The notes under the pieces: model-generated | What the model was told of the DNA's origin: nothing | Databases searched by the model: none | What the model saw: the letters and a program-made list of their open reading frames with translations, nothing else | From: an uncultured Acidobacteriota bacterium | GTDB taxonomy: Bacteria; Acidobacteriota; Vicinamibacteria; Vicinamibacterales; SCN-69-37 | Direction of reading: 5' to 3' | NCBI GenBank assembly: GCA_963739035.1 | Contig: CAVTYZ010000022.1 | Span: forward strand, 57,334-121,333 | DNA length: 64,000 bases | Made by a program: the position numbers and the translations under genes | Part shown: piece after piece, positions 15,120-63,309 of the stretch | How the letters are laid out: the number at the start of each line of letters is the position of its first letter | Numbering within the stretch: position 1 is the stretch's first letter

Positions 15120-16282
15120 CTACTGCGATCGTCGGCGGGAATAGGTCTCGAGGAATGCCGTTCTGAACGAGTCGAAGTTTCCGAACTCAATAGCCTTCCT
15201 AATCGCTCGCATGGTGTCAAGGTAAAAGTGCAGATTATGCAAGGTGTTGAGGGCAGCGCCGCTCATCTCGCCGGTCATGAAAAGGTGACGCAGATAGGCG
15301 CGTGAATGATGCCGGCACGTCGGACACGTGCATCCCGGATCGGGCGGCCGCGGGTCCTCGGCGTACCGGGCGTTCTTGATCGAGATCGGACCCTCCCGGG
15401 TGAGGAGTTGACCGTTCCGCGCGTTGCGGGTCGGGAGCACGCAGTCGAACATGTCGATCCCGCGGGCCACGCTCTCAATGAGGTCGTTGGGCGTCCCGGT
15501 GCCCATCAGATATCTGGGAGCCGACTCGGGCAGGGCGCAAGCCGTGTGCGCGACGACGTCGTACATCGTGGCTGTCGGCTCGCCGACCGAAAGTCCGCCG
15601 ATGGCATAGCCCTCGAAGCCGATCGCGACGGTGCCTGCCGACGCTGCGGTCCCGCAAGTCCGAGGAACGTTCCGCCCTGAACGATGCCGAACTGGGCCTG
15701 CCCTGGTGTGGACACGGCAATGCCGGCAGTCGCGGCCGTTCCGAGCGCCTCGAATCGCGCTCGCCCGCGGCGAGCCCATCGGAGCGTACGCTCCATCGCC
15801 GCCTCGACGTCGGCCTGCGGAATCGGCCAACTCGGGCATTCGTCCAGGATCATCGCCACGTCGGATCCGAGGCGCGACTGAATGTCCACGGCGGCTTCAG
15901 GTGACAGCGAAAGTGGTTGTCCGTCGAGATGCGACTGAAAGACGACAGCGTCCTCGGTCACGCGCCGACGCGCGGCGAGCGAGAAGACCTGATATCCGCC
16001 GGAGTCGGTGAGAATCGGTCGCGACCAGCCCGCGAAGGCGTGAAGCCCGCCCAGCCGGGCGATGCGATCGTCGCCGGGACGCACGTGCAGGTGGTACGTG
16101 TTCGCCAGCAGGATGTCCGCGCCAAGATCGCACAAGGCCTCGATCGTGATGGCCTTGACGGCACCGCGCGTGCCGACCGGCATGAAGGCCGGAGTCTCGA
16201 CGACGCCGTGTGGCAGATGCAGGCGACCCCGACGCGCGCGTCCGTCACGGGAAAGAATTTCGAACCCGAAGCGGGCGCTCAC
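15120..16282 (-). CDS. tgt: tRNA-guanine transglycosylase (frameshift near 15650)
   Basis: TPAFMPVGT, LANTYHL, TDSGGYQVFSL, FGIVQGG, RYLMGTG, DMFDCVLPTRNARNG, CTCPTC. Confidence 0.96.
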
Positions 16283-16353
16283 GGCGCTTAGCCTATAATG
16301 ACTGCCCTCGCGCCGGCTTCGAGCCGCCGCGTTCCTTTTCTTCTTCGACACAC

Positions 16354-17516
16354 GTGAAGCGACTTCGTGTTGGCGTCTTGTACGGCGGCCGCTCGGGCGA
16401 GCACGAGGTGTCGCTCGCGTCGGCGGCGTCGGTGTTCGCGCACATCGATCGGCAGCGCTATGAGCCCGTCGCGATCCGCATCGAGAAGGACGGCCGCTGG
16501 GTGCTCGCCGATCGCCCACCGTCCGCCTCTTCGGCCGCCGAAGTGATCGAGCAGATGCGCAGCGACGTGTCGCGCCTGCGCACCGGTCGCACGGTGTTCC
16601 TTCCGCCGTATCCGGGTGACGACACGCTCGTGCTGGTCGATCGTCGCGGCACCGGAGGCGCGGAAGCGGCCGCGACACTGACCGGACTCGGACTCGACGT
16701 CATCTTTCCGGTGCTGCACGGTCCGTTTGGCGAGGACGGCACGGTTCAGGGCCTGCTGGAACTGGCCGGCGTGGCCTACGTCGGCTGCGGCGTGCTGGCC
16801 TCCGCCGTCGGGATGGACAAGGCCGTCATGAAGGTGCTGTTTCGGGCCCACGGGTTGCGGGTTCCGGACTGGGTCGTGGTCCGGCAGCCGCGAGTGGACC
16901 GCCGATCGCGCCCGGGTCGATCGGCGCGGATTCACGACGCGCCTCGCCTTTCCGCTGTTCGTCAAACCCGCCAACCTGGGATCGAGCGTCGGCATCTCCA
17001 AGGTGCACGACCCGTCGGCCCTGGCGGGCGCGCTCAACTACGGCGCTGGACTACGACCGGAAGGCGGTCGTCGAGTGCGCCGTTCCGGATGCGCGCGAGA
17101 TCGAGTGCGCGATCCTCGGCAACGACACGCCCGAGGCGTCGGTGCCGGGCGAGATCGTGTCGTCGCGCGAGTTCTACGACTACGAGGCGAAGTATCTCGA
17201 CGGTGCGTCGCGCCTGATCATTCCGGCGCCGCTCGAACCGGACATCGACAGCCGAAGTGCGGCGGCAAGCGATCCAGGCGTTTCGTGCGATCGAAGGCGC
17301 GGGGCTCGCGCGCGTGGATTTTCTGCTGAGTCGATCGACCGGCGAGCTCTTCGCCAACGAGATCAACACGCTGCCAGGGTTCACGACGATCAGCATGTAC
17401 TCGAAGTTGTGGGCCGCGTCGAAGCGTCGACCTCGCCACGCTCGTGGACCGACTGATCTCGCTCGCCCTCGATCGTCACGCCGAGAAGCAGACATCTCCG
17501 CGTGAGCGCGTTCTGA
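16354..17516 (+). CDS. ddl: D-alanine--D-alanine ligase (several frameshifts)
   Basis: [66 protein letters not shown] across frames. Confidence 0.93.
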
Positions 17517-17599
17517 GCCCCGCACGCGCGCCGGCGCGTTCCGACCGCGTCCCGACGATCGACGCGCGTGATGTTTTGACAACACGCGCGAGTTTGTGC

Positions 17600-17627
17600 T
17601 TGACACTGTTTCGAACTCGTCCATAAT
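17600..17627 (+). promoter_or_regulatory. sigma70 promoter
   Basis: TTGACA (17600-17605), N16, CATAAT (17622-17627) in an intergenic region. Confidence 0.7.
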
Positions 17628-17633
17628 CTACAT

Positions 17634-17832
17634 CTTGCGTGAGAGCGAATCACTCAGCCCACCTGTTGGGTACGCCAGCGATGGTGGAGTGGAGTGACGC
17701 GGCGCAAACAGTCCGAATGGACAGCGACGACAGTCGACGCCAACGAAACGCGTCGATCAATTTACGCGCGACACGCCGGTCGGCACTCGACTCGGCGGCA
17801 GGGTGCAGCACTTCTGCTGGCACCCTTTTTTT
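17634..17832 (+). ncRNA. Candidate ~200-nt structured sRNA or attenuating leader
   Basis: Starts right after the promoter; nested stems ttgcgt/gcgcaa, tcactc/gagtga, ccacc/ggtgg; hairpins gtcc/ggac, tcgacgc/gcgtcga, cgccg/cggcg; ends at a terminator. No credible ORF. Confidence 0.5.
17801..17832 (+). terminator. Intrinsic terminator inside the leader
   Basis: gggtgcagca-cttc-tgctggcaccc followed by T7. Confidence 0.8.
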
Positions 17833-17976
17833 GTGCCTTGTCGGAGATCAGGCATCTCCGTCCGCAACGAAGCCAGGGCGCTCTGCGTGTGACTCGGGCA
17901 GGCCGGGAGGCCGCGGGGTCGCAGCAGAGTTGAGCGCCTGCGCATGACACCAAGCCGAAAGGGGGGACTCCAAGCA

Positions 17977-18030
17977 ATGGCAAAGAAAGCAGCTAAAGGC
18001 GGCAAGAAGAAGGGCGGCAAGAAGCGGTAA
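17977..18030 (+). CDS. 17-aa Lys-rich micro-protein MAKKAAKGGKKKGGKKR
   Basis: ATG..TAA preceded by an AAGGGGGG SD-like sequence and followed by a terminator; below the ORF-track size cut-off. Confidence 0.7.
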   Translation: MAKKAAKGGKKKGGKKR

Positions 18031-18048
18031 GAGTCGCTCCGCCAAGAG

Positions 18049-18076
18049 AAAGGGGGCGAACGCGCCCCCTTTTTTT
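18049..18076. terminator. Intrinsic terminator, probably bidirectional
   Basis: aaagggggcg-aacg-cgccccc followed by a T run, between convergent genes. Confidence 0.85.
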
Positions 18077-18133
18077 CTATGCGACGACCGGGAACGGGAC
18101 GTGTTCGTTCGTCCCGTTCCCGTCAATCTCCGG

Positions 18134-20284
18134 TCAGTTGAACGTCACGCCGTCCCAGATCCGCACGCGATCAATCACGTCCCACTGCGACAGCCGATCG
18201 AGCACATCCCAGCCGTTGACCACGCGCGCGAACACCGTGTATCTCGCGTCCAGGTGCGGTTGCGGCGAGAGCGTAATGAACCATTGGCTGCCCGCCGTGT
18301 CGCGCCAATCGAGAGCCATGCCGACCGTGCCCCGCACGTAGGGCTGCCAGGTGAGCTCGTCGGGAATGGCGTAGCCCGGACCACCCTCGCCGTCGCCTCG
18401 CTGGTCACCCGCCTGCACGACGAACGTCGGCACGACGCGATGGATCTTCATGCCCGTGAAGAACCCGGCGCGCGCAAGCTCGACGAAGTTCTTCGCCGTG
18501 ATGGGCGTGTCAACCACGTTGAGCTCGAGCTCGATGACGCCGCGGCCGGTCTCGATGAACGCATGCGGCGAGAACTGAGGATGCAGCACGTCCGGGGCTT
18601 CGAACGACTCGACCGGGACGCGAAGCGGCGCGGGACGCGTTGGCGCGGCCGCACGATCGCCGAGACCGTGGAGGAGTGAGGCCGCCCGCCACCGAACCGG
18701 CCAGTCGCGATCCGAGAGGCCCTCGCGGAGTGCCGCCATCGCCGCGTCGCCGCCGTATTTGGACAAGGCTTCGAGCGCAGCCGTGCGCGCCGCATACGCC
18801 GCGTCGCTCTGCCCTCGCGTATACGCCGCGATGAGCCGTGGGATCCCACCATCGGGGCGCGAGTCGCCAATCAATCTGGCGGCCGCGGCGCGCTCCATGA
18901 AGTCAGCCGCCTCGAGCGACTTGAACAGGAGGTCGGCGACGTTCTGGGCCTTGACGGACGCGAGCGCGTCAAGAGCCGACCCGTGCACGCGCGCGTCTTC
19001 GTCAGCCAGCAACTCTTCGAGCGCCGGCGTCACGCGTTCCGAGGCAAAGGTACCGAGCACGTTGGCCAGCGTCGGCCCGAACTGACCACTCGGGATCGCG
19101 ATTGAGGCCGGACAGCACCAGGAGAAACGCGTCGGGCGAGAGCTTGGCCGCGGCGGTCAGTGCGGCCGCGCGCATCGCGGGCGATGGATCGTTGAGCCGC
19201 TCGACCACCACCTCGAATGCCCGCGCGTGACCTGAGGCCCCGACCGCCGTCACGATCTCCAGCGCGATCGAGCTGTCGATTGGCTGCCCCAGCAACTCGA
19301 GCAGCGGCTCGATCGCCGCAGGACCGCCGATCTGCCCCAGCGCGCGCACGGCCGCGATGCGGACCTTGACGTCGGCCTCGGCGTTGAACGCCGCCGACTT
19401 CGCGAGGGGCACGGCGGCCCGGTCTTTGAGCGTGCCGAGGCCACGAAGGGCAAATCCCGCGGTGTCGATGCCTGGCGTGGTCGCCAGCACCAGGAGCGCC
19501 GGAGTCGGCTCGCGGATCACCAATCCGCTGAAGCGCATACGCGACGGGCCACCAGCGGGAAACCGGCTGGCCCTCTGGTGTCAACGCCACCTGGGCGAGC
19601 CGCTCGTAGTCGCGCAGCCGCGCGAGCGCAAACAGCGCAAGCCGGCAAATCTCGATTTCCGGTGCCTTGGCCGGCTCCTCGTCGTCTGGCGCGATCGATG
19701 CGATGCGCGCGTCGCATCCGGCCGCCGCCGTGACGATGGCTGGCGCCGAGGCTGCGTCGCCAACGAGCCCAAGACCTTCGACCGCGCGGGCACGGACGAC
19801 GGGCGAGGGATCCTCCAGGGCGGCACGGAGCGGGCGGGCCCCCTCGCGCGCATCCGATCCAATCAGTCCAATGCCGAACGCCGCCACTGCGCGTACCTCG
19901 GCGTCGGAATCCTGGAGCGCGGACACGAGATAGGGCAGACCCTCCAGCATGCCGATGCGGCCGATGCGCCAGGACGGCACGCCGCCGCACCGCCGGGTCG
20001 AGATCGAGCGCCAGTTGATCCAGCCCCGCGGCCGCGGCGGGGGCGAGCGTGCGTGGCGGAAGGACGTCGGCAACCGGCGCCGCGATCGCAGCGGCGTCAG
20101 CATCGCGAAGCGTGCGCTGCTGTTCCAACCGCAGGATCCAGGCCATCTTGCGGTCCAAGGGAATCACGGGCGGCGGAGCCACAACCGGGGCTGGCGTGAT
20201 GGTGGACTTGCACCCCCACGCGGCCACGCTCGCCATTCCGAGAAACAGGAGCGCGAGGGCGCGAACACGTCGTTGGCGCGGCAT
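18134..20284 (-). CDS. HEAT-repeat protein with C-terminal cyclophilin-type peptidyl-prolyl isomerase, probable lipoprotein (frameshifts)
   Basis: Signal ending AWGC, many HEAT/PBS repeats, C-terminal IHRVVPTFVVQAGD..GDGEGGPGY, GTVGMA, GSQWFIT..PQPHLDARYTVF. Confidence 0.87.
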
Positions 20285-63233: not shown

Positions 63234-63309
63234 GGGCCCCTAGCTCAGCGGTTAGAGCTGCCGGCTCATAACCGGTTGGTCCCAGGTTCGAATCCTGGGG
63301 GGCCCACCA
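63234..63309 (+). tRNA. tRNA with CAT anticodon, most likely tRNA-Ile2
   Basis: GGGCCCC TAGCTCAGCGGTTAGAGC, anticodon arm GCCGG-CTCATAA-CCGGT, GGTTCGAATCC, ends GGGGCCCACCA. Ile2 rather than Met is inferred from the acceptor stem and the position after rpoD. Confidence 0.93.

Follow-up and report, generated by a model that had tools for sequence, protein, structure and literature searches.

A 17-codon open reading frame (ORF) in the window, the whole 64,000-nucleotide stretch of DNA analyzed here, is by its coding signatures a real gene, and it belongs to a unit that recurs across its bacterial order. We lean toward reading the locus as one strongly promoted unit, or operon, in which an internal terminator (T1) would act as an attenuator and the product would be an ultra-short polycationic peptide. 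The support for this reading was observed as conservation, coding signatures, RNA structure and presence in RNA libraries. The features of the locus are collected in Table 1.

Table 1. Features of the micro-gene locus, with positions in the window
Feature	Position	Strand	Remarks
Inverted repeat CGCGCGTGATGT / ACAACACGCGCG	17563..17590	.	Encloses TTTTGACA box
Sigma-70-type promoter TTGACA-N16-CATAAT	17600..17627	+	11/12 consensus positions
Conserved 5' leader (CTACATCTTGCGTGAG...GCTCAGCCCACCTGTTGGGTAC)	17628..17674	+	Start site predicted at ~17632-17637
Variable middle of the 5' RNA	17675..17799	+	Conserved within the genus only; place of copy 1 in sister families
Internal intrinsic terminator T1, GGGTGCAGCA-CTTC-TGCTGGCACCC then T7	17800..17832	+	
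Hairpin P1 (cggagat/atctccg), directly after T1	17840..17862	+	-9.5 kcal/mol
Long irregular hairpin P2, tip CC-GNRA/GGNN-GG	17872..17943	+	-45.8 kcal/mol, ~72 nt
Extended G-run Shine-Dalgarno GAAAGGGGGGA	17957..17967	+	10 nt before ATG
Micro-gene MAKKAAKGGKKKGGKKR*, 17 aa	17977..18030	+	8 K + 1 R of 17
Terminator T2, AAAGGGGGCG-AACG-CGCCCCCTTTTTTT	18045..18076	+	-22.6 kcal/mol, z -4.58, U7

Conservation among relatives, which the initial annotation had put forward for checking, was found in 39 of the 41 genomes of the order, the window's own included, and this recurrence makes the unit more than a chance arrangement. Sister orders carried related ORFs with the same Shine-Dalgarno motif. Family f10 of the order mostly lacked the unit (3 of 20 genomes by BLAST, 0 of 10 with the hairpin model), and two f10 genomes had ddl and the PPIase gene directly tail to tail; the unit is therefore dispensable in this family.

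Coding signatures of the micro-gene

Intact copies of the micro-ORF numbered 77, in 56 of the 59 related genomes examined; those starts that were collected with an ATG-only filter are ATG. The copies end in KK[R/K] followed by TAA or TAG, with one sole exception ending in KKC. Insertions and deletions were whole codons only, save for one frameshifted copy in a genome that is 62% complete. Across the 34 copies of 17 codons, 8, 9 and 16 of 17 columns were variable at codon positions 1, 2 and 3, with 28, 49 and 127 minority letters, respectively, and 16 of these copies encode a peptide identical to that of the window. The arginine codon switches among CGG, CGC, CGT, CGA and AGA. At four loci, the tandem copies of a genome differ at synonymous sites but yield identical or almost identical peptides. 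Codon differences among copies were 1486 non-synonymous vs 2030 synonymous; the non-synonymous differences are thus many, and tight constraint on the peptide is limited to its lysine pattern. The open frame alone is weak evidence, since the stretch is purine-rich and has few stops in any frame. Beyond it, the 77 ORFs showed a start with a Shine-Dalgarno sequence, an in-frame stop, in-frame length changes and a third-position excess. The initial annotation had proposed that the ORF is genuine and would be missed by gene callers. The 77 intact copies and the third-position bias bear this out, as does an exact look-up of peptide variants in a collection of 15 billion proteins, in which 0 of 16 were on record.

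The micro-ORF is nested in a listed 28-aa ORF (17944..18030). Both the G-rich Shine-Dalgarno sequence and the lysine-rich frame described earlier were located, with refined coordinates for the ORF (Table 1). Five G columns and the next A of the Shine-Dalgarno were invariant in two alignments (37 and 36 loci). A small ORF from the conserved ATG/GTG of the leader was ruled out, as two loci read ATG TAG there, and so was a 102-aa ORF (17639..17947), which sits in a non-conserved stretch. Four pattern matches outside the class were the starts of ordinary proteins of 69-428 aa.

Alternatively, the ORF could be incidental and the transcript could function at the RNA level (e.g., a purine-rich (AAG)n sponge or an RNA-chaperone binding platform), an explanation that we consider quite improbable. 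The AAG/AAA repeats, with a U-tailed terminator behind them, are reminiscent of chaperone-binding modules, and third-position A/G changes would be neutral for such a motif too. However, the distance from ATG to Shine-Dalgarno is fixed, and over the whole length range of 13-33 codons the stop stays in frame. GCN/GGN wobble and CGG-to-AGA changes preserve the residue, and the paralogues of one genome share their peptide while their synonymous sites differ.

The second terminator that had been reported after the ORF was there as well (T2, Table 1). Its sequence was conserved across loci, the form of its A-tract and U-tract looks bidirectional, and it separates the micro-gene from the convergent HEAT/PPIase gene. 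A consensus terminator scan of 17300-18300 returned 0 terminators; both hairpin-plus-U-run sites were plain on direct folding. In 56 of 61 loci the next gene is a convergent PPIase gene, which starts 50-398 nt past the last ORF. This gene order bears on the possibility of a lysine-sensing leader peptide, in which ribosome stalling at Lys codons would control the following terminator. In the his, thr and phe leader attenuators, an intrinsic terminator comes after a short ORF that is enriched in a single amino acid. The locus shares this layout, with Lys at 8 of 17 codons and an intrinsic terminator after the ORF. Unlike those leaders, it has no co-oriented downstream gene to regulate, and the peptide itself is conserved and duplicated; nor was a consistent alternative pairing with the Shine-Dalgarno or ORF region found. 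Because the next gene is convergent in most loci, a Lys-sensing attenuator is very unlikely.

Promoter, leader and internal terminator

The promoter sequence reported earlier was there, at corrected coordinates (Table 1), and one sigma-70-like site was found in 17300-18300 vs 0.1 +/- 0.3 expected. The promoter was nearly invariant across the order in an alignment of 36 loci, preceded by a conserved TTTGTGC, and the promoter-plus-leader pattern occurred once per genome in five of five near-complete genomes. The inverted repeat noted before the promoter was also present, with arms (17563-17574 and 17579-17590) that are 92% complementary. The TTTTGACA box (17574-17581) is conserved and recurs in most loci; the enclosing arms differ, already in two genomes of the same genus, so the repeat is probably incidental.

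The leader alignment of 43 loci was gap-free, and 16 of its first 44 columns were invariant. Folding of 17634-17832 gave -88.4 kcal/mol (z -3.77), and the fold of the window's leader alone was not significant (z 0.07). In other families, a leader helix GGUGG:CCACC was 87.9% paired with 4 double changes vs 1.1, which is modest support; this helix does not form in the window's family. The middle stretch was alignable among close relatives only and was almost absent at two loci. The initial annotation had considered a ~200-nt structured RNA or a riboswitch. The first ~45 nt and the terminator of this RNA proved conserved, the middle was not kept, and the idea of a free-standing structured family did not stand. 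No ligand-sensing aptamer was evident between leader and T1, where sequence and length vary, and the riboswitch option found no support in this stretch.

The internal terminator with its T7 run was found, again at corrected coordinates. Its hairpin (17800-17826) folds at -17.0 kcal/mol (z -2.99) and is followed by U7 at 17826-17832; in 30 of 40 loci, leader and ORF2 are separated by a T1-like hairpin with a T-run after it. T1 has the look of a strong terminator, which was counted against a single-transcript reading.

The majority of sister families had two tandem copies of the micro-gene under one near-invariant promoter and leader. The first copy lies between leader and T1 in 18 of 26 genomes of the other families in the order. 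In these 18 two-copy genomes, ORF1 starts 94-110 nt past the -10 marker, and the Shine-Dalgarno sequence of copy 1 in sister families is AGGAGG. The window's family lacks copy 1 and retains promoter, leader and T1. The putative "sRNA" thus occupies the position of copy 1, which was lost in the window's family and is present there in sister families.

If the locus is one unit, transcription would begin a few bases past the near-invariant -10 box and proceed through the conserved ~45-nt leader. In most sister families it would then pass copy 1, T1, P1 and P2, copy 2 with its G-run Shine-Dalgarno, and T2. Since promoter, leader and T1 persist in the window's family though copy 1 is lost, most transcripts there would probably stop as non-coding RNAs of ~200 nt, and the fraction that reads through would bear the micro-gene. 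T1 may act as an attenuator controlling the dose of copy 2.

In RNA libraries of four soil studies, contigs span T1 (17660-18024, 17670-17971, 17667-17891 and 17767-17973). These contigs are strandless, a single transcript is not provable from them, and DNA can be present in RNA libraries. For three of the studies the contigs start at 17660, 17667 and 17670, and bins 17502-17553 had zero depth in every RNA run. The runs were picked for containing words of the window's stretch, and positions lacking contig cover (e.g., 17632-17657) are uninterpretable.

These contigs also bear on an unlikely two-gene arrangement, in which a trans-acting sRNA (promoter, 5' seed and T1) would precede a micro-gene with its own promoter of an unrecognized type. 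The window's family keeps the promoter, ~45 nt and T1 without an ORF between and leaves the middle free to vary. Seed-plus-terminator sRNAs usually have this anatomy, and T1 has a good stem and U7. However, the interval from T1 to the ORF contains no sigma-70-like site, and the length of P1 varies, so that promoter boxes would have no fixed spacing. Moreover, a T1-like site is absent from 10 of 40 loci, where both copies would be co-transcribed, and the contigs of four studies cross T1. In dual-function sRNAs such as SgrS/SgrT, RNAIII/hld and SR1/SR1P, a short terminated transcript carries a tiny ORF. Similarly, the tiny ORF is found here in some lineages and the transcript persists without it in others. 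Unlike these sRNAs, the locus has a second ORF copy downstream on read-through, and no base-pairing target is known here.

Hairpins P1 and P2 upstream of the ORF

The base of P1 was conserved and its tip variable; by eye, the base alternates in the alignment among GTCGGAG...CTCCGC, GTCAGAT...ATCTGC and GCCAGGC...GCCTGC. The stems ggcgctc/gagcgcc and ctctgc/gcagag, listed separately in the initial annotation, are parts of the single hairpin P2, which is long but simple and has no multi-stem junction. Compensatory changes occurred at 18 of 23 P2 pairs, with 100 double-changed cells vs 40.6 +/- 6.7 in shuffles and a covariation score of 0.304 vs 0.075-0.101 in slid controls. On 14 genomes outside the model, 16 of 23 pairs were compensated, with 44 cells vs 16.7 +/- 3.2 and a score of 0.315 vs 0.044-0.105 in controls; 0 of 500 shuffles reached the observed values. 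One alignment of this covariation analysis, A5, was fitted to the structure of the model. G-U pairs, in keeping with the + strand, were frequent in helices 3 and 4 (e.g., GU:7 at columns 56/86), and the P2 model gave one match per genome. The stems described before the ORF thus withstood the covariation check, including its repetition on independent genomes, and by this covariation P2 is a structured element conserved within the micro-gene's 5' UTR. P2 may govern the stability or translation of the read-through mRNA.

Other pairings were set aside. On the raw MAFFT alignment (A1), the one pairing that RNAalifold gave joined the Shine-Dalgarno G-run to the 3' arm of T2; it showed no covariation and was rejected as a signal. 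Sequestration of the Shine-Dalgarno was rejected, as the predicted partners change from locus to locus. As to rRNA mimicry by the spacer including P2, a short BLAST against the own genome, in which the rRNA was not explicitly located, gave only chance-level matches of 12-18 nt.

The position of P2 raises the possibility that the peptide belongs to the ribosome, or associates with it, as a lineage-specific micro-protein and represses its own synthesis by binding P2, in the manner of ribosomal-protein leaders; we judge this rather improbable. Ribosomal-protein mRNA leaders place a hairpin upstream of the gene of a small basic product, and lambda N-boxB is a GNRA-like peptide-hairpin pair. P2, with its GNRA-type tip, likewise lies just upstream of the gene of a small basic product. 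In contrast to lambda N, the window's peptide is Lys-rich rather than Arg-rich, P2 has no Rfam match, and the two would be no more than a candidate pair. Lineage-specific micro ribosomal proteins exist: bTHX, bS22, bL37 and eL41 have a few tens of residues and are extremely basic, lineage-restricted and easily missed. The window's peptide is also tiny, very basic, lineage-restricted and missed by gene callers, has a dedicated near-invariant strong promoter, and is preceded by a conserved covarying hairpin just upstream of its Shine-Dalgarno. Unlike these proteins, it has no Pfam or NCBIfam match, ribosomal families included, and is made up almost entirely of K, A, G, T and R, without aromatic residues. 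Lengths of 13-33 aa and free A/G/T swaps favor loose electrostatic binding over a fixed ribosomal pocket. In addition, the unit is missing from most f10 genomes, and the hairpin-containing spacer had chance-level short matches only in its own genome.

The peptide among known families and its meaning

The peptide copies range from 13 to 33 aa, nearly all follow MA(A)KK...KK[R/K], and Lys and Arg make up ~54%. The variants contain almost only K, A, G, T and R, aromatic residues are absent, and between lysines the residues interchange freely among A, G and T. The longer variants read MAKKKAAKKKATKKKATKKK... Profile searches of the small-protein families in Pfam-A and NCBIfam (among them Thx, bS22, KGG repeat and H1-like) returned 0 families, both for 7 variants of 21-30 aa at E <= 10 and for 5 variants in a further search; these tools need at least 20 aa, and the 17-aa peptide itself is below this minimum. 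PDB sequences gave no match to the peptide (best E 6.9), and phmmer with a 33-aa variant gave 0 matches among 1.84 billion proteins. Low complexity and short length make the Pfam/NCBIfam, PDB and phmmer searches weak tests. At the level of titles and abstracts, the literature held nothing on such a peptide or locus.

The RNA had initially not been recognized as a known family, and the Rfam check agreed. At gathering score, Rfam 15 matched the whole window only with a tRNA at 63234-63306. At E <= 10, the region 17450-18150 had 10 matches, all far below gathering (best 25 bits vs 66); they lay on T1, on or around T2 (one overlapping the 3' half of the ORF), or on a downstream hairpin. Acido-1 (RF01686) and Acido-Lenti-1 (RF01687), non-coding RNA candidates described from Acidobacteria (PMC2864571), come from the same phylum as the window's RNA. 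They differ from it in that the window gave no match to either at gathering score, and the region none at E <= 10.

In composition, the peptide family resembles the H1-like Lys/Ala-rich nucleoid proteins and tails (Hc1/Hc2, AlgP and the HupB tail), which carry AKKA- or KKAT-type repeats whose number drifts between species. It shares such low-complexity repeats. In those, the repeats form a whole protein or a tail attached to a folded domain; here the gene codes for nothing but the repeat, which has no Pfam match. In line with the initial annotation, we infer from this composition that the peptide would bind nucleic acid or ribosomes; it may be an abundant polycation acting on RNA, ribosomes, DNA or polyphosphate. 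A bolder version, which we hold only tentatively and think doubtful, is that the gene encodes a protamine- or polyamine-like polycation that this abundant order of soil Acidobacteriota would make in large amounts, perhaps ribosome- or nucleoid-bound, with its dose set by the split at T1 and by feedback through P2.

In soil, Acidobacteriota rank among the commonest bacteria; most of them are known from metagenome bins only, for which annotation programs cannot call a 17-codon gene. An order-wide gene with relatives in sister orders stands outside current annotation. P2 is a new covarying hairpin that could join RNA-family libraries. The locus is also a natural experiment in micro-gene evolution, in which tandem copies stay alike within a genome and one copy is lost while its promoter, leader and terminator stay. 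If the peptide binds ribosomes, nucleoid or polyphosphate, it would represent a new class of very small cellular polycation. If control of such a polycation by T1 and P2 holds true, no shorter self-regulating gene for a structural protein would be known in bacteria.

Layout and coding character of the locus

All elements of the locus sit in the interval bounded by the 3′ end of ddl and by the HEAT/PPIase gene, which is convergent, and those described in the initial annotation were all found in the sequence, with slightly corrected coordinates. The promoter is the sole sigma-70-like site in 17300-18300 (1 observed vs 0.1 ± 0.3 expected). A consensus terminator scan of the same interval listed no terminators; T1 and T2, the internal and final intrinsic terminators, were called from direct folding. 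Folding of 17634-17832 gave -88.4 kcal/mol (z -3.77).

Elements of the micro-gene locus in window coordinates
Element	Position	Strand	Remarks
Upstream box TTTTGACA	17574-17581		inside an inverted repeat with 12-nt arms
Sigma-70-like promoter, TTGACA-N16-CATAAT	17600-17627	+	11/12 positions match
Leader	between promoter and T1	+	
T1 intrinsic terminator	hairpin 17800-17826, U7 to 17832	+	-17.0 kcal/mol
P1, small hairpin	17840-17862	+	
P2, long hairpin	17872-17943	+	-45.8 kcal/mol
Shine-Dalgarno G-run motif GAAAGGGGGGA	17957-17967	+	
Micro-ORF MAKKAAKGGKKKGGKKR*	17977-18030	+	
T2 terminator	18045-18076	+	-22.6 kcal/mol, z -4.58

With 17560-18090 as a DNA query, 39 of 41 genomes of the order matched, the source genome counted, and the source genome itself gave a single match. 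Two blocks stood out in these matches: the promoter with the leader, and the Shine-Dalgarno motif with the ORF and T2. At least one intact micro-gene copy was present in 56 of the 59 genomes whose loci were read, giving 77 copies in total. The exceptions were locus L015 (frameshifted, in a genome 62% complete), L067 (zero copies by the ORF filter used) and L072 (where the one candidate is a Lys-rich ORF of 35 aa that does not begin with ATG). Copies were 13 to 33 aa long, with 17 aa in 37/77, and lengths differed by whole codons throughout. Their residues totaled K 685, A 334, G 176, M 77, R 71, T 37, P 5, S 4, V 4, and C 1; the arrangement of Lys is fixed, and the spacer residues drift among A, G, and T. 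Among 34 copies of 17 codons, 8, 9, and 16 of 17 columns varied at codon positions 1, 2, and 3, with 28, 49, and 127 minority letters, respectively, and the stop was TAA in 29 and TAG in 5. The Arg residue was retained through codons CGG, CGC, CGT, CGA, and AGA. Pairwise comparison of the 17-codon copies gave 2030 synonymous and 1486 non-synonymous codon differences, the latter counting against tight constraint on the peptide. The intact copies, in-frame length changes, and excess third-position variation bear out the proposal that the micro-ORF is a genuine gene, conserved and translated-looking.

The source bin is 59.9% complete, in 22 contigs. In 15120-17626 and 18134-20284, it takes two to four overlapping frames to cover each of tgt, ddl, and the HEAT/PPIase gene, and therefore the assembly probably contains frequent indel errors rather than real pseudogenes. 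The micro-ORF of the window is unbroken and encodes a peptide that recurs unchanged in 15 other genomes. A genome-wide scan also found a short basic ORF, MPKKARGTKKTQRKKR, at position 71910 (+ strand) of contig C15 of the source genome, with no evident Shine-Dalgarno; it is probably a chance ORF or a piece of a larger gene.

The longer peptide variants matched no Pfam or NCBIfam family, and the micro-peptide variant searched matched no PDB chain and nothing in a representative protein set. None of 16 variants looked up had an exact protein record, and full-text literature searches returned nothing relevant to such a peptide or locus.

Promoter, leader, and RNA structure

Between the -35 box and approximately +45 the sequence is near-invariant across loci, with 16 invariant columns within the first 44 of a gap-free alignment of 43 loci. 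Each of 5 near-complete genomes contained a single promoter-plus-leader pattern and no match to the reversed pattern. T1, taken as a hairpin of -8 kcal/mol or lower with a T4+ run no more than 3 nt from its end, lay between the leader and the distal copy in 30 of the 40 loci with such a copy and was absent in 10. A promoter scan between T1 and the ORF of the window found no sigma-70-like site. The micro-gene has a dedicated promoter and leader and a frequent internal terminator.

A second TTGACA-like box, TTTTGACA, is kept in most loci, ~20 nt 5′ of the -35 hexamer; possible roles are as an UP-like element, a regulator site, or a second promoter. TTTGTGC stands immediately 5′ of the -35 box. 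A conserved ATG/GTG in the leader was rejected as an ORF start, with L036 and L038 reading ATG TAG. In other families, a leader helix GGUGG:CCACC was modestly supported, with 87.9% of cells paired and 4 double changes vs 1.1 ± 0.9 (level reached in 4/500 shuffles). This helix cannot form in the window, where folding of the leader was not significant (z 0.07).

The locus is present in RNA libraries. An index search returned DNA runs from soil, plus six RNA runs in which the shares were small, and contigs of four RNA runs, one per study, were aligned to the locus at ≥85% likeness; these contigs attest presence only, as they are strandless, may derive from DNA, and come from runs selected for containing the locus sequence. 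Contigs spanning T1 covered 17660-18024 (360 nt, 14 other letters, 5 gaps), 17670-17971, 17667-17891, and 17767-17973. In three studies they started at 17660-17670, ~30 nt past the predicted start, which is no more than a weak hint. Depth was zero in bins 17502-17553 in all four runs and in 18048-18125 in three of the four. Copies from many relatives map to the ORF, which accounts for the peak of summed depth at that place.

The initial annotation had also noted stems ahead of the ORF. A P2 consensus derived from averaged pair probabilities of 36 loci held 23 pairs with 78.2% of cells paired, and both sides had changed in 18 of the 23. Double-changed cells numbered 100, vs 40.6 ± 6.7 shuffled (0/500) and 26-41 in slid controls, with a covariation score of 0.304 vs 0.075-0.101 in controls. 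Because this structure came from the same 36 sequences, a covariance model was built and searched against 151 genomes of the class. It gave 28 matches, one per genome, 27 of them within the order; family f22 gave 1/39, borderline, and f21, f24, f25, f26, and f10 none. In the 14 matching genomes outside the model, in an alignment itself fitted to the model, 76.7% of cells were paired and 16/23 pairs were compensatory, with 44 double-changed cells vs 16.7 ± 3.2 shuffled (0/500) and 11-20 slid, and a score of 0.315 vs 0.044-0.105. These counts uphold P2 as a covarying hairpin of the 5′-UTR. Its numerous G-U pairs are consistent with the + strand. The base of P1 is kept by paired changes, judging by eye from the alignment. 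A pairing partner for the G-run Shine-Dalgarno was sought across loci, and none was consistent.

A covariance search of the region matched no Rfam family, in agreement with the earlier view of an unfamiliar RNA; the families covered include Acido-1 and Acido-Lenti-1, which appear for the Acidobacteria phylum in a table of PMC2864571. The sole Rfam match at gathering score in the window was a tRNA gene at 63234-63306. A perfect 11-bp inverted repeat, GGAACGGGACG...CGTCCCGTTCC, at 18091-18120 between T2 and the PPIase stop codon hit only a spurious microRNA model (25 bits vs a gathering score of 66) and may be part of the 3′ end structure of the PPIase gene.

Tandem copies

In the order's other families, two tandem copies were found in 18/26 genomes, one in 7/26, and none by the filter in 1/26. 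Copy 1, the proximal ORF, begins 94-110 nt past the -10 marker with an AGGAGG-type Shine-Dalgarno, and copy 2 follows ~240-290 nt beyond, mostly behind a G-run. In the window's own family, 26/28 genomes carry copy 2 alone, L028 has both, and L015 is frameshifted; the promoter, first ~45 nt, and T1 are kept although copy 1 is mostly absent. The stretch from leader to T1 is not alignable in this family and is nearly missing in L012 and L016. Of the ~200-nt leader or sRNA described initially, the first ~45 nt and T1 are conserved and the middle is not; the whole therefore occupies the site that copy 1 takes elsewhere.

Where a genome has two copies, these give the same peptide or nearly so, with synonymous-site differences (L028, L029, L035, L045); L028 encodes MAKKAKGGKKKGGKKR twice and L029 MAKKGGGKKKGGKKR twice. 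Paired peptides in the two-copy genomes L028, L029, L035, L045, L039, and L073 are identical or nearly so and unlike those of other genomes, with the DNA of the two copies differing at synonymous sites. Such likeness is suggestive of gene conversion, or of selection acting jointly on the peptide, and of concerted evolution in a pair of genes 15-17 codons long.

Distribution and proposed function

By BLAST, 72 of 201 genomes of the class matched. Within the order, matches extended to almost every family, the exceptions being f10 (3/20) and f3 (0/2). In other orders, f22 gave 7/54, f25 13/17, f21 0/28, f24 0/19, and f26 0/8. The f22 and f25 loci hold MAAKKKAAKKKGGKKR-type ORFs behind GAAAGGGGGGAT, then a G5/C5 terminator, sometimes in tandem, and are without the order's leader motif. 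Across the phylum sample, a G-run-plus-MAKK pattern occurred in 28/401 genomes, 24 within the order; the 4 matches outside the class were rejected as starts of ordinary proteins. In the complete f10 genomes L088 and L090, ddl (its end located by eye in the sequence) and the PPIase gene converge directly, ~170-190 nt apart, without the micro-gene, and the five loci read in this comparison contained no Lys-rich small ORFs. Most of f10 has either lost the unit or never acquired it.

The convergent PPIase gene starts 50-398 nt past the last copy in 56/61 loci, and ddl is upstream in 36/61, some loci being duplicates of one genome. This leaves nothing downstream to attenuate, so a leader-peptide attenuator is excluded. 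T2 has an A-tract 5′ and a U-tract 3′ of its stem and may serve both the micro-gene and the PPIase gene, which would explain their tight linkage.

We propose that one promoter drives the whole unit, with T1 acting as an attenuator that would split output between copy 1 and copy 2. Copy 1 appears to have been lost in the window. P2 may affect stability, processing, or translation and could be an operator for the peptide itself. The peptide would be a polycation acting on RNA, ribosomes, DNA, or polyphosphate, and the variation in its length and spacers would suit a loose electrostatic interaction more than binding at one fixed site on the ribosome.
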